Source: Centroscyllium fabricii | Lineage: Eukaryota | Direction: 5' to 3' | Assembly (NCBI GenBank): GCA_051313645.2 | Contig: JBNRSN020000011.1 | Span: 15,500,001-15,564,000, forward strand | Length of the DNA stretch: 64,000 nucleotides | Part shown: positions 17,956-32,236 of the stretch, piece after piece | Layout: every line of letters begins with the position of its first letter | Position numbering within the stretch: the first letter of the stretch is position 1 | Position numbers and translations under genes: made by a program | The notes under the pieces: model-generated | The model's input: the letters and a program-made list of their open reading frames with translations, nothing else | Database searches by the model: none | Told to the model about the DNA's origin: nothing

Positions 17956-18765
17956 GGCATGGAGTTTCTGCTAGGGGCGCAATCGATAAACTACACCCAG
18001 AATGTGCTGGAAATCGTGCTGGTTTTGACGAGGTAAAGTTACTTTGAGGTGCCGTGCAAACTCATTAGCTTAAGCCTGAACATAAAATCTCCCATGAATC
18101 AGCGCTATCAAGCAGCGTGATCGATGGTAATCGATTTGTGACTGGAACAGGGCATCCTTCAGCATTAGAGCGAGGAGCGGGATTGCCAAGAAATTAACCA
18201 TTTTTCACTTGATTGATTTCATGTTCTTGGTCTTACTTTTTAATTGGATTCAATTGACTGCTTTGATCTGTCATTGGCACATAAGACCTGTGACCAGCAG
18301 TCAATTGAAGCCACACAGGTGTGTCCTGCTCTGTTGTAATTGACTGAATTTAGACTAATTTAAACTGAATTAAATATAATTTAAAGTATTGCAGCAAGCA
18401 GCACGAGGAGGAGAAACACAAGGACAGGCTTCAATTGACTGCCGGTCACTGCAGCTACGGGAAATTAACCCTGGATTCATGTGACTATGGGCGCCTGTGT
18501 GCCCGAGTATCTGGACGCAATGTGATGAACAACCTTGAACGATCGCAATGGGGGGAAACTCATCATTCCGATCTGGGGGATGTGGTGTTGTGGGCAGGGA
18601 CTGCTTCGGGAGAACCAGCATAAAAGGTCACAGATACTTGGACGTAACGTATTTATGGGCACAATTCACTTACATTTAAAATTTCGGGACCTTTAACGCT
18701 ATTTCACTCGATTCTGCTCAGATTACGCTGCTATCTGGGTGGAAATCATATGGGAACTCCAGGCC
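17956..18765. mobile_element. Old Harbinger-type MITE
   Basis: Imperfect TIR GGCATGGAGTTTC ... GGAACTCCAGGCC; TSD not preserved. Confidence 0.55.
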
Positions 18766-19401
18766 GCGGCGTACGTTGGAAACTGCCTCACGCTCTGGAG
18801 TAAGAAATGCCTGAAACAGTCACAGAAAAAATATTTAGAGGTGCGAAGGTGATTTCAAGATGAGGTTTTTGTCAGAACGAGGAAGAGACGGGGTAAAAAT
18901 TTCCACCGTGTTCTCCCACCGTAACTTCGGCAGAAACCCCGGACAAAGGGCATAAGCAGCCGGTGAGAGCTTGGGAGGAGCCCAGTGCAAATTCCAAGTG
19001 GTGATGCCCACAAGTCATTATGTTCCTGGTTTCACCCGTCCACCCCTGGCTGCCACCCAATACAGCTCCATTCACGAAGGCTGATACCAGTCTCCGCTGC
19101 TAAATGCACAACCCTTTATATCTGGGTATTAATTAAAAACTACACAATGCATACAATTCTGACAGTCAGCCACACACTCGTTGGATACACCAGCTTAGAT
19201 TTAAAGGGACAAAATGGGGTATCTCATTTCAAACAAAAATCAATCATGTTTATTCTGCAGTACAAACATTTATGTGGATCTTTACACAGCTCAGCACATG
19301 TATGTATATCTCAGGTAAAAGCCCAAATGCATACAGATATACAGGAGCGTAGAGGACAGCGCGTCTGACACAGCTATTGCTCACAGTGTCTTTTGTGAGT
19401 G

Positions 19402-19800
19402 ATGTGGAGGTGCCGGTGTTGGACTGGGCTGGACAAATGCAAGAAGTCACACAACACCAGGTTATAGTCCAACAGTTTTATTTTAAATCACAAGCTGTCG
19501 GAGCGTCTGCCCCTTCGTCAGGTGAAAGAGAAGCTGACTTAAAGAACGCACATATGGGAGGAAGAGAGAAATCTGATCTCCCACATCATCAGACTGATGT
19601 GTTAAAATATGTTAATATGCCTTTGTGTGCTCTGTCTATCTCTGCTAAGGTGAGATGTGGGAGATCAGATTTCTCTCTCTCTTCCATATGTGCGTTCTTT
19701 AAGTCAGCTTCTCTTTCACCTGACGAAGGGGCAGACGCTCCAAAAGCTTGTGATTTAAAATAAAACTGTTGGACTATAACCTGGTGTTGTGTGACTTCTT
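19402..19800. mobile_element. Penelope-like fold-back element with 147-bp inverted arms, each with a hammerhead-like motif
   Basis: Arms 19441-19587 and 19654-19800 are near-perfect reverse complements. 13-bp TSD TCTTTTGTGAGTG (19389-19401, 19801-19813). Motif TCAC-CTGACGA-A-GGGGC agac GCTCC-[G]AAA-GCTT-GTGA. Confidence 0.8.
19716..19753 (+). ncRNA. Minimal type I hammerhead ribozyme relic (GAAA core mutated to AAAA); mirror copy on the minus strand at ~19488-19525 (GAAA to GACA)
   Basis: CUGACGA core, stem II GGGGC/GCUCC, stem I UCAC/GUGA, short palindromic stem III AAGCUU. Confidence 0.6.
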
Positions 19801-20285
19801 TCTTTTGTGAGTGTTACTCCCCCCAACTTTGATTTAAAAACCAAAGGTATATTCTCAAAATTAAGGTGCCAGAATACACCTAGAATCGCAGAAAGTACAG
19901 CTCAGTAGGAGGTTATTCAGCCCATTCTGCCAATACAGGCTCTGCAACTGAATCTATTCCTTCAAATTCAATTTCCCTGCCTTTTTTGCTATGGCCTTTT
20001 ACATTATTCCCTTTCAAATACTCGTAAGACTCTCTCCCAAACTTTGGTGTCACCTGCAACTCTTTTACGTTGTACACACCATAACCAGCAGTTGCTTGAG
20101 CATAGGTTAAGTTGTATAAAATCGCTTGCCTGTTGATTCGTAGCATCCAACATGTTGTGAAGCCGTTGTCCTGCTCACAGCTGTCTCTGGTTTCATCCTC
20201 CACTATCTCGCCCAAGTGACTATGGTTGAAATAAATGCTGGAAAAACTTAGCCGTTCAGGCAACATCCGTGAAGAGAGAAATGAG

Positions 20286-20320
20286 AGTCAATGTTTCGGG
20301 TCGGGACCCTTTATCAAGAC
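20286..20320 (-). ncRNA. Minimal hammerhead-like motif with a U3-A8 core variant
   Basis: Minus strand reads GUC-UUGAUAA-A-GGGUC cc GACCC-GAAAC-AUU-GACU. Confidence 0.55.
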
Positions 20321-20491
20321 ACTCTGCAGTAAGAAACGCCTCAAACAGTCACAGAAAAAATATTTAGAGGTGCGAAGGTGATGTCAAGATGAGGTTTTTG
20401 TCAGAACGAGGAAGAGACGGGGTAAAACTCCACCGTGTTCTCCCACCGTAACTTCGGCAGAAACCCCGGACAAAGGGCATAAGCAGCTATT

Positions 20492-21317
20492 GGGCCAGAA
20501 ATTGCAGTCTGCCGTTTCGTGCGGGTGCACGGCCATGCGGACCCCTAACGCAGCGCACCAGAATCTTGCCGTTTTAGCGGTGAAACATTCCAGTATTTTT
20601 TTTTGCATTCCTGGGCTGCGTAACAGTGCAGCCACGCTAGGTGCGCTAAATATGCGTTGCCGTGGTGCGTGTGCTAGTGTGATGCCCCGCCCACGAAGGT
20701 CTCATTTAAATGGACACGCCCCCTGATGTGCACACAGAATCAGCAGGGAGCAAGGGCGGGCAGCATCACATTGGCAACGAAGGTAAGTCTTTGATTTTCA
20801 GCGATTTTTTTTGCTAACTTTTTTAAACAAAGAAAGACTTTTAAATTTCGGATGAAAAACTTTAGAAACAAACAATTTTGTACAAAAAATAGGGTGATAA
20901 AAAATTGAAAAGCCGATTTTTTACATTTTTCAAAACAATTCAAAATCCACAAAAAATAGTAGTTAACTGCCCACATAAATCATAAAAGTCAATTAAAATT
21001 GCTAAAACTTTAAATTAAATGCTAAAAAAGTCACTTACCGTCTTCAAAACGCACTGCTCTTCCTAACGCACGGTTAACGACTCCTTTTTTCCCGTGCAAC
21101 TCCAAGCCCAGTTGCCCACAGATTAGCGCACAGAATCACACCCATTTACATCGGGATTTTTGGGTGTTATTCTTTTGTGCGTTGGATGCTGAAGCCTCTT
21201 CTGTCTCAGCATCGGAAAGCCCGGATTCCTGCGCATGCCCCGTGCGATAGCTAGCACGGGGAATTAGGCGCCACTCCTGCGGGTGCTAAGCGTGCGATGG
21301 ACTGGAATTTCTGGCCC
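20492..21317. mobile_element. PIF/Harbinger-type MITE
   Basis: 18-bp TIR GGGCCAGAAATT(G/C)CAGTC with one mismatch; TSD ATT. Confidence 0.88.
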
Positions 21318-21728
21318 ATTATTTTGGATTTTTTCGGATTTCCTGCATCTGCAGTATTTTGCTATCATGACTATGGTTGAGTCTGATTGTCTTCGTCTCC
21401 CTAGGCTAGTATCCCATCACTGCACCAGCGGAGATTATTTAACGGTGCTCTTACATCGCAGCCTCAGTTTCAGGAGACTGGTGCTCTCTATACAGGTCTA
21501 TACAAGCTAAATCAGGCAGCTTATATTTATTTCTAACTGCAGCTGTTGGGCCTATTATTTTTATATGCTTGCTGAAATCATGAACAATAAGAGTATAGTT
21601 TGAAATGCTCTCTGGTATACCTTTTTATTCTGGAGAGTGTGTACAAGAATTCATCGATGCATTTAAGGGTAAGCTGGACAAGTACACGAGGGAGAAAGGA
21701 CTAGAAGGATCTGCTGATAGGGTGAGAT

Positions 21729-28517: not shown

Positions 28518-28940
28518 GAGAAGATCACTTGCCCCATAGCTGCATGAGAAGATTGGAGTGTACATCTTTGAGCGTCACAATATAATTAATTAGTAGGGTT
28601 CAGTGTTCCGTGTACTCACTTGCGGGTACCAGCTAACTAAAACTCTGGCCGGAATTTTCCTTACCAAGCCGGATTGGCTGTGTGTGGGCTGAGTGTCAGG
28701 TCGGAACTGCATTGTTCTTATCATCCTGCTCCTCAGAGCAACTTTCAGTTAATGGCGCCTATTTAGGCAGGCCCGCGCATTTCCAGGCCCTAGTAAATGG
28801 TGCAGGTCTGGCGACATCAGCAATGACTCATTTCCAGCGGGAATATTTAAAGCAGCCTTGACCACATCACATTTAAAGGTTCATCTCAGAGTATGCAGCG
28901 AGGATATATCACGATCTGGTTATTGCTCAGACTTGCAAAG

Positions 28941-30785
28941 ATGGCGTCACAAAGACAGAGGGCTGCACCCAGGTTGTCAGATGACGTCCTACATATTCTT
29001 GTGGAGGGAGTCAGAGCACACAGGGAGGTCCTCGCCCCTGCTGATGGGCAGAAGAGACCTCTCCAGGAGACAAAACGAGCCTGGCTCCAAATTGGAGAGG
29101 AAGTGAACAGCAGGGATGTGGTGAGAAGGACTTGGGTGCAGTGCCGGAAATGCTTCAATGATCTCATTAGATCAGGAAAGGTGAGGACAAAGCCACACTC
29201 ACATCCCCATCACTCTGTCTTCCCAAGCCTGCTCCAGCACATCATTACTCACACCAACATACCTTGCACGTCCACCCATCCCTCTCTCTCTATGTACTTA
29301 CTCACATCTCCCTTTGACTAACCATCCCTCACATTCACCCTCATCGTAATGCAATCATACCAAATACCACCACACAAGATGGCCATCTGGCGCTGGCACT
29401 TTTGCATTGGCACCACATTCCCTCATAGTCACCCTCTACAGATGTAACCCACACATTCCTTACACACATGCCAGCACTTTCACTCAAACTTCTCTTCTTT
29501 CCCTCCTTGCAGGAGAAACAAGCCCACAACAACAGGGAGAGGGAGAGAACCAGAGGTGGCCCTCCATCCTTTGCCACTTTGGCAGCAGCAGAGGAGGTCA
29601 TCCTGGAGTTGTCCGGAGTTGTGGAGCAGCTGGCAGTGGGAGACGGAGAGAGAGGGAACCTCTCAGCAATCTGGTGACAGAATTACATCACATACCGCCA
29701 CATGGCATACAGCAGTCACTCATATGGGGACTGATGTCAGCAGCCAGTGAATGTTCATCATGTGTATAATGGTATTGTTACCCATTCTTAATGTAACATT
29801 TCTAAATCATCTCTTTACACTCCCACAGGTCCATCAAGAAACGCCCCCCCCCCCCACCCCCGCTGTTGTCCAGGAGGAAGAGGAAGACGACTCCTCAGAA
29901 GAGCCTCCAGCCTCTAGGCGCACCATCACCAGACATAAGCTCACCTGGCACTAGCGCAGATACGCACACCTTGGTGGAGTCCCATGTAAGTTAGAGTAGT
30001 GTTGTCATCTGATGTCTCACAAGTCACAAGTGAGCTAAAGGAGATGGTTGAGACAGGGACAGCAATGGAGACTCCTCGCCAGAGTGTGCAGGAAGCTCCA
30101 AGCTCTGCTCAGATGCTTGCAGACACTGAGCCTTGAGGGCCATTGAAAACGTGGACAATCCTGGAGGTGCAGGAAGAGGTGCAGGAGGCTCTGGCAGGTT
30201 TTGCAGTCACAATGTCTGCAAATGTGCAGAGAATGGAGGAGTCCATCTCCAACATGAGCACCACAATCTCGTAGGTGATGGGGATGGTATGCTCTTCCAT
30301 GGAAAGGATGACCACCTGCATGGAGCAGCTAATGCACCACTCACAGGAGTAAATGCTGTCTATGGGCAACAGATGACAGAGGCTCATAGACCTCCTCACT
30401 GGAGGGATGAAAACAGAAATTTGGGTCCTCATGGCCCCGCTGCTGTGCCGGGAAGTGTGCGTAGCCCATGAGAGGGATGATGGTGAGAAGGGACAGGGAA
30501 GCAGGTGCCCCTCTCAAAGCACTCACACCTCTCACCAATTGCCCCACTCCTCAGTCAAAGTCCCAGTTGCCTCCTGGGACTGCGATGGCCGAGTCTGCCC
30601 CTGCACAGTTGCAGAAGGAGCAGACTTTGGCGGAGCCATCACAGGCTGCAAAACCCAGAGGACGTCCACCAAACGTGTCTATGCAGTCGCAGCAGGGAAG
30701 TGAGCAGGCTGCTTCTACCTCTGCTGAAGCCACAGGGTTTGCACCTTGTAGAGGCACGCATAAACGAATACTGACACAGAAGTAG
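28941..30785 (+). pseudogene. Harbinger accessory Myb/SANT-like (MSANTD/NAIF1-type) DNA-binding gene, three exons, decayed
   Basis: Exon 1 28941-29180 MASQRQRAAPRLSDDVLHILVEGVRAHREVL...KRAWLQIGEEVNSRDVVRRTWVQCRKCFNDLIRSGK|GTGAGG. Exon 2 from 29513 (ttgcAG|EKQAHNNRERERTRGGPP...). Exon 3 from ~29829 has frameshifts and stops. Confidence 0.82.
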
Positions 30786-31065
30786 ATGCACATGGGTGTT
30801 TAAAGTGGTATGATTGTTAAAGTTCTGTTAATGTTATGACACATATTAAACTATTCATTTTCACCACTTTCACCACATGCCTATTTGTTTATGCTACTTT
30901 GGAAGTGGCTTACTGAGTTGCTGTGAATGCTGAGACATAACGTTACCTCCAGCAATGGGGGTCAGTGTGAAAGGAATGGCTTTGTCATTGCAGCGATGCT
31001 TTATGGTGTTGTTGCCAGGGAAACTGGCACAGCATGTGGTCGCCATATGGGTGTAATGCAGGGAG

Positions 31066-32236
31066 TTAAGTAAATTTGGCCATGATGAGGCCATCCCTGG
31101 CCTCCCGGGCAGCGGTGTGCTCCGGTGCTGCTGGCAACTGGAACTCAGATTCTTCCTGTTCCTCCTCCTTCTCTTCCACCTGCTCTGAAGAAAGAGGCTG
31201 TGCGCTCTGCGCCTGACTCCTCATGCAGTGCTAATCCTCGCTGCCTTGCCATGTTGTGTAGGGCGCAGCAGACAACGATGATTCTGGAGACCCCGGCTGG
31301 TGCGTACTGAAGGGCACCTCCAGATCTGTCAAGGCATCTGAAGCTATCTTCAGCATGCCTATCGTTTGCTGGACATGTGGCTTTCATTATATCTCTCCTG
31401 GGCCTCAGTACTTGGCCTCCTCAAGGGTGTCATGAGCTACATCTTCAGTGGATAGCACTTGTCTCCAAGCAGCCAGCCGGAAAGTCTGTTTGGAGGTGTG
31501 AACAGCTGAGGGAAGGTGGACTGGTGAAGAACAAAAAAGTCATGGCAGCTGCCAGGGAATCTGGCACACACATGCATAATCATCTTCCTATGGTTGGAGA
31601 CGAGCTGCACATTGAGGGAGTGGAAGCCCTTGCAGTTCACAAACACTCCTGGGTGATGTGAGGGTGCCTTGATGGCCACACGTGTGCAGTTGATGATGAC
31701 CTGCATCCATGGGAAGCCAGCCAGAGTGGCAAAGCCGAGTGCCCGCTCAGTAACACTGGCTTCATCAGTGGCAAAGCTGACATAATTGGCTGACTTGTCC
31801 AACATGACATCGGTGACCTGTGTGAAGCATCTCTGGGCAGCTGACTGTGAGATGCAGCAAATGTCTGCTGCAGAACCCTGGAAAGAGCCTGAGACGAAGA
31901 AGTTGAGGGCGCTGGTGACTTTGACAGCGACTGGTAAGGCATGCCCACCCGTTCCTCTGGGCTGCAGGTCTTGCTCCAGCAAACTGCAAATGTCTGTGAT
32001 GACCTGAGCCTCCTTTGGCATTGCTGCTCAGTCATGTTGAGAATGCTTATCTCCTGCCTGTATACCCTGTGTTGGGTGTATTGCCTCTGGCGTGGGGGAG
32101 CTCTACGCTGATGCCCTCTGTCCTGTGGAGCATAAGGTCATTGAGGAGAAGGCTGCTGTTGTTGTTGCTGCGGGTGTTGGGATTCATCCTGGTCCAATTC
32201 TGAGGACCAAGGTGACACAATTTAAGCAGAACCCAT
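31066..32236 (-). pseudogene. Harbinger (HARBI1-like) DDE transposase pseudogene
   Basis: Motifs [41 protein letters not shown] (the canonical IDCTH Asp reads Asn), [53 protein letters not shown]; several frameshifts. Confidence 0.92.

Follow-up and report, generated by a model that had tools for sequence, protein, structure and literature searches.

A Penelope-like element insertion with a filler copied from nearby DNA between its two arms

How does a Penelope-like element (PLE) insertion come to hold, between its two ends, a segment of DNA that also resides little more than a kilobase away? The question is raised by a locus in a 64,000-nucleotide stretch of Centroscyllium fabricii DNA (hereafter the window; contig JBNRSN020000011.1, positions 15,500,001 to 15,564,000). 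An initial annotation had proposed that the reverse transcriptase (RT) or the repair machinery switched template to neighboring chromosomal DNA during integration. This proposal is now supported by the presence of only two copies of the segment in the genome, by an empty insertion site in a relative, and by a second insertion of similar construction.

The insertion is bounded by two exact copies of a 13-bp target site duplication (TSD), TGACTATGGTTGA, a sequence that occurs in the window only at 20217-20229 and 21368-21380 (plus strand). Immediately inside the left copy is an inverted PLE arm on the minus strand (20230-20321), which appears to have been primed at the short 3′ end of the family and which stops just outside stem I of a hammerhead-like motif. 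It is followed by the filler (20322-20487, plus strand), a 166-nt direct copy of a source segment at 18793-18960. All of these features had been recognized correctly in the initial annotation. The 3′ tail had been placed at 21321-21367, and a tail arm is indeed present there, but it begins at 20488 rather than 21321. Specifically, its first bases (20488-20491, plus strand) precede a younger insertion, beyond which the arm continues from 21318 to 21367 with the full 3′ end of the family and a roughly 10-nt tandem repeat near the junction (21321-21340). The source lies to the left of the insertion, 1,256 bp from the TSD and 1,529 bp from the filler when measured start to start.

The element that interrupts the tail arm is an 826-bp Harbinger-like MITE (20492-21317) of very high depth, with inverted 5′-GGGC ends and a 3-bp ATT duplication. 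The left ATT lies within the first bases of the tail arm, and the right ATT starts its continuation at 21318. The MITE carries a duplication of its own and most likely arrived later than the PLE. Among the six copies of this MITE that were found, three have a perfect 3-bp duplication; the other three, in L075, L085 and L192, are flanked by AAT/ATT pairs in place of identical 3-mers. Remains of a Harbinger-type transposon are also located in the window at 28851-32027, with a Myb/SANT ORF on the plus strand and a DDE_Tnp_4 domain on the minus strand, and a comparison of the MITE with these remains yielded no match. A further insertion at 19392-19803 is a fold-back element from another hammerhead-type family, with 155-nt arms and a 66-nt spacer.

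Since the same layout is found in family members and in published PLE structures, we take the inverted piece and the 3′ tail to be the two ordinary arms of the family. In a sample of 50 tail-bearing copies taken without selection, in order along one contig, 17 read as TSD, inverted arm, junction, arm with tail, and TSD. Insertions of EN+ PLEs are described as carrying an inverted pLTR, a one-sided tail of 30-40 bp and a TSD (PMC3846280, PMC8557442, PMC11167929). Like these elements, the present family has an inverted 5′-truncated arm, a one-sided tail and a short TSD, along with a predicted hammerhead-like motif and, upstream, the end of a putative GIY-YIG-type ORF. TSDs similar in length to the 13 bp seen here are present at many family loci, and at least 11,276 exact copies of the tail occur in the genome. 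The closest relatives of the window arm, read at 29 other loci, are 95-97% identical to it and reveal two 3′ ends about 34 nt apart.

The family is known here from terminal sequences and upstream ORF ends. Upstream, longer copies (L175 and L153, which lead into the terminal region of the family) continue into the end of an ORF that carries a GIY-YIG-like motif. For L175 the Pfam GIY-YIG match is weak (E=6e-4; 20.5 bits, under the curated 22.6), and the ORF of L153 has the same motif with no Pfam match. Folding of the minus strand of the window arm predicts a minimal hammerhead-like motif comprising stem I, a U3-A8 variant core, stem II and GAAAC (z -1.55), and an Rfam scan of the window gave nothing at gathering score, this motif included. 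The point at which the arm ends is a frequent one: the break falls within a few bases of 20321 in 9 of the 29 close relatives, although the query slightly favors such copies. This stop lies just outside stem I, about 30 nt before the predicted hammerhead-like cleavage site, and 170 exact copies carry a non-native base at this stop, some of them merely as point variants. L111/L132 has a tail-only plus arm layout like that of the window locus, with a 15-nt filler. Short repeated copies of the arm ends are present at many family junctions, which suggests stop-and-restart synthesis.

The two arms of one insertion can also differ. A subfamily marker disagrees between the arms in 11 of 98 classified pairs (including L064, L069, L096, L107, L108, L115 and L211), about four of which are probably separate elements, whereas 48% would be expected if the arms were independent. 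A minority of two-armed copies may thus derive from two RNA molecules, as judged from this one marker. In addition, L164 and L063 share a short non-arm sequence, which is found between tandem ends in the former and between inverted arms in the latter and possibly represents an internal piece of this element or of one from a related family.

If the arms are ordinary, then what is the segment between them? Filler and source are 166 and 168 nt long, and an alignment of 20319-20487 with 18790-18960 gives 95% identity, with five substitutions and one 2-nt gap. Two nucleotides of microhomology (AC) are present at the arm side of the filler, and none is evident at the tail side. A segment of this kind could be a normal part of the PLE family, a dispersed repeat, or a product of misassembly. 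However, a search of the whole 7.2-Gb genome with the 166-bp segment gave two matches from two candidates, exactly as local capture predicts, and the segment has no match in 89 other junction loci of the family. This genome search skips very common words, which leaves some room for a repeat. A wider query (18560-19120) did recover an old repeat, whose near edge is some 20 bp to the left of the source; among the 40 matches scored from its 86 candidates, the remaining 38 stop short of the copied part and give no third copy of it. Three runs show elevated depth over 18890-19004, which also favors a repeat, and part of this bin therefore resembles a low-copy repeat.

The history of the locus can be read from contigs of four sequencing runs compared over 18200-21620, one of which (X6) represents a relative that is about 6% diverged. 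A single 1,384-nt X6 contig covers 18735-19391, 19804-20216 and 21368-21620 with zero letters between the pieces, and differs from the window at 82 of 1,322 places. It carries the source once and one copy of the TSD, and the PLE is absent, which is the orthologous empty site that the initial annotation had anticipated. The fold-back element is missing from this contig as well. At 18808, 18813 and 18854, three of the five sites at which filler and source are substituted (among the 26 of 38 differences listed for that piece), X6 has the base of the filler and not that of the source; at 18835 and 18848 its base is unlike both. The agreement at three sites indicates that the source changed after it was copied, and thus that filler and source form an old duplication rather than an assembly slip.

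Contigs from two other runs, X11 and X12, which may represent the assembly's own material, cross the left outer junction without differences and cover 21339-21620 likewise. They break at 18814-18843, the point where source and filler turn identical, and show one substitution and two gap letters, with X11 carrying the filler's variant at 18899. None among the contigs listed spans the two inner junctions. Considered together, the empty site, the shared bases and the behavior of these contigs make an assembly error very unlikely, and we find it scarcely credible that the segment is a family part, a repeat or an artifact. The best reading is that the filler sits exactly where two separately primed cDNAs were joined.

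A survey of other insertions for fillers of local origin, of the kind that the initial annotation had suggested, yielded one clear example, L187. Four sets were assembled. The first drew on 61 copies in which both arms are full and covered 50 of them, 40 together with 5-kb flanks and 10 short ones by their listed sequence. The second added 35 new loci among 39 copies, with junctions judged by eye and some flanks of only 1.5 kb. The third was drawn from 90 of the 170 copies broken at the same base as the window arm; 28 were two-armed as determined by script, and 24 of these were new, including the window locus. The fourth comprised the 17 two-armed copies of the unselected sample, bringing the total to about 126. 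Fillers were delimited by k-mer masking, and a source beyond the flanks covered would be missed.

The clear local captures among these roughly 126 two-armed copies are the window locus and L187. With the window locus set aside, the rate is one or two in about 125, and in the unselected set it is 0 of 17. In L187, which has no MITE, a TSD encloses a tail arm, a filler of 126 nt, and an arm whose break falls at the same base as that of the window arm. Its filler is a mosaic of two inverted pieces whose best genome-wide matches lie 0.3 kb (70 nt at 96% identity) and 2.9 kb (52-55 nt at 88-89%) from the insertion, although part of the nearer piece also matches a site 27 kb away. Microhomology amounts to 3 nt at the tail arm, and there is none at the other switch point. 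In a control with random flanks, 3 of 600 70-mers had a private local near-copy, none of which was enclosed by element arms and a TSD.

A third candidate, L067, holds a 147-nt LINE piece. A copy in the same orientation 0.6 kb away is 90% alike, and distant copies reach 95%, such that its standing as a local capture is ambiguous on sequence grounds. Several other candidates were rejected. The spacer of L083/L114 resembles an LTR-type element that inserted later and is flanked by a short duplication of its own; the long spacers of L115, L208, L250, L251, L260, L278 and L279 contain later repeats; and the fillers of L056 and L066 are pieces of dispersed repeats with no local source. Neither the 50-nt filler of L097 nor fillers of 15-35 nt had a local match above the control. 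A 214-nt filler between the two arms of L072 (4892-5105) has no close source in the assembly, where its only match (82%) is on another small contig.

Could the filler have been added only after integration, by repair of a later break at the arm junction that was possibly linked to arrival of the MITE? The MITE lies only 1-4 bp from the end of the filler, and later insertions inside elements are known at L083, L115, L208, L250, L251, L278 and L279. Against this, the filler shows no separate duplication and fills exactly the space between the arms, a position that it shares with the filler of L187, which is free of the MITE. Furthermore, the arms are not mirror images and would offer no hairpin to break, and the filler differs from its source by about 3%, a distance comparable to the one between the arm and its closest relatives. 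We consider repair after integration to be quite improbable.

We favor, as the probable explanation, a two-armed PLE insertion in which a host end-joining polymerase copied a local template while the cDNAs were being joined. This reading builds on the TSD, the empty site, two arms in opposite orientation that reach one 3′ end of the family each, a source that is local and unique, and a filler exactly between the arms. The PLE protein would cut both strands 13 bp apart, and each end would prime one cDNA, the one from the short site measuring about 92 nt and the one from the tail site about 40-50 nt. The latter, shorter cDNA likely anneals to a single-stranded flank bared by resection, where a host end-joining polymerase similar to polymerase theta likely copies 166 nt before the end joins the other arm. 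The MITE would arrive later, 1-4 bp from the junction of filler and tail arm.

The geometry of the templates bears on which enzyme did the copying. Seen from the tail arm, the window filler is a direct copy from the far end, and the L187 pieces were copied in inverted orientation from the arm's own end. With the tail arm as primer, the strand left single-stranded by 5′ resection would be the template at both loci; with the other arm as primer, the resected strand would be needed at each. We favor a host end-joining polymerase over the PLE's own RT because extension from the tail arm would, in these two cases, use a strand that resection exposes.

Alternatively, the RT itself might have left the element RNA for single-stranded DNA close by, or for a local transcript, and copied 166 nt there before its product was joined to the other arm. 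In accord with a jump, the filler begins at a frequent cDNA stop point of the family. Template jumps are proposed for PLE inserts in Adineta (PMC3846280), and pairing of growing cDNA with nearby DNA is proposed for L1 (10.1101/2024.08.27.596794). However, a host end-joining polymerase would account at least equally well for the two pieces in the L187 filler and for the short repeated copies at junctions. Pfam searches with 31 of the 48 long ORFs of the window returned transposon domains only and no host gene, which argues against a jump and provides no evidence for the intronic source that the initial annotation had envisioned. A jump by the RT seems unlikely.

Several points also weigh against the host polymerase. 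Sequence alone cannot name the enzyme, microhomology is restricted to 2 nt on one side of the filler, and the templates are 1.3-2.9 kb away, farther than the 15 bp typical of templated insertions at L1. The absence of local fillers from the unselected two-armed copies and the local duplication of a few random 70-mers count against it as well, as do the ambiguity of L067 and the lack of an inner-junction crossing among the contigs listed. An origin of the filler from a splice junction, suggested by an acceptor-like break point and a donor-like GTGAGG in the source, was rejected; the junction has one base beyond what splicing would give, and that base is retained in most copies with this break.

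Synthesis-dependent microhomology-mediated end joining (MMEJ) by polymerase theta uses short microhomologies, repeated rounds of copying, and templates near the break in either orientation. Compared with the usual products of this pathway, the fillers described here are longer and their templates more distant.

A copying slip of similar kind is already known for human L1. Segments of less than 250 bp, typically from within 15 bp, were found duplicated in 22 rare instances among about 3,600 insertions (10.1101/2024.08.27.596794), and three templated insertions are described in a second study (PMC11702581). The PLE fillers resemble these events in that a non-element genomic segment of less than 250 bp (166 nt here, 70 and 55 nt in L187) is duplicated inside the TSD. 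They differ in that the host element is a PLE, the insertion is in the germ line and common to at least two samples, and the filler lies between two cDNA arms. Likewise, the template is 1.26 kb away here and about 0.3 and 2.9 kb away in L187, whereas at L1 it is typically no more than 15 bp distant. There is also a likeness to L1 twin priming, in which both DNA ends prime cDNA and the middle is joined with small losses or gains while the TSD is kept. Unlike twin priming, the PLE insertions have no poly(A), and both primings occur at fixed sites at the PLE end rather than one at a chance internal site.

For PLEs themselves, a PLE protein is reported to cleave and extend both strands, with two start sites that lie one tail apart (PMC11167929), and unrelated DNA captured between PLE ends is mentioned for Adineta (PMC3846280). 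Unlike in the accessible portions of reports on EN+ PLEs, the captured DNA is traced here to the neighborhood of the insertion and dated against a relative. Fillers of PLEs with a local template did not come up in a literature search, with subscription journals outside its coverage, and the available part of an animal retrozyme preprint has nothing on such fillers.

The initial annotation also viewed the event as a route for local duplication. This route is real but rare, with one or two further cases in about 125 copies. Given at least 11,276 tail copies, of which a third are two-armed and about 1% of those carry a local filler, some tens of small local duplications might be present in the genome, a rough figure extrapolated from one or two cases. 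No function is indicated for the window locus. Fillers at the arm junction record the last step of PLE integration, in which two separately primed cDNAs are united while DNA as far as 3 kb off is within reach. The duplications are a minor but testable origin of variation, and models of PLE integration could draw on them as a natural data set.

The filler copy is likely a dead-end by-product, with no sign that the cargo moved again. A more far-reaching idea is that integration of a PLE passes through a long-lived break, resected over kilobases and bearing two free cDNA ends, such that local DNA is regularly packed and copied onward with its carrier ("Pack-PLE"); we judge this to be rather improbable. 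One hint of onward copying, for which gene conversion could also be the cause, comes from L054 (G000:C113:169471575) and L133 (170248184). These two insertions are separated by 776 kb, their flanks are unrelated and their TSDs differ, yet they have in common a 20-nt spacer (one mismatch) that occurs nowhere else by exact pattern, along with two variants on the adjoining arm.
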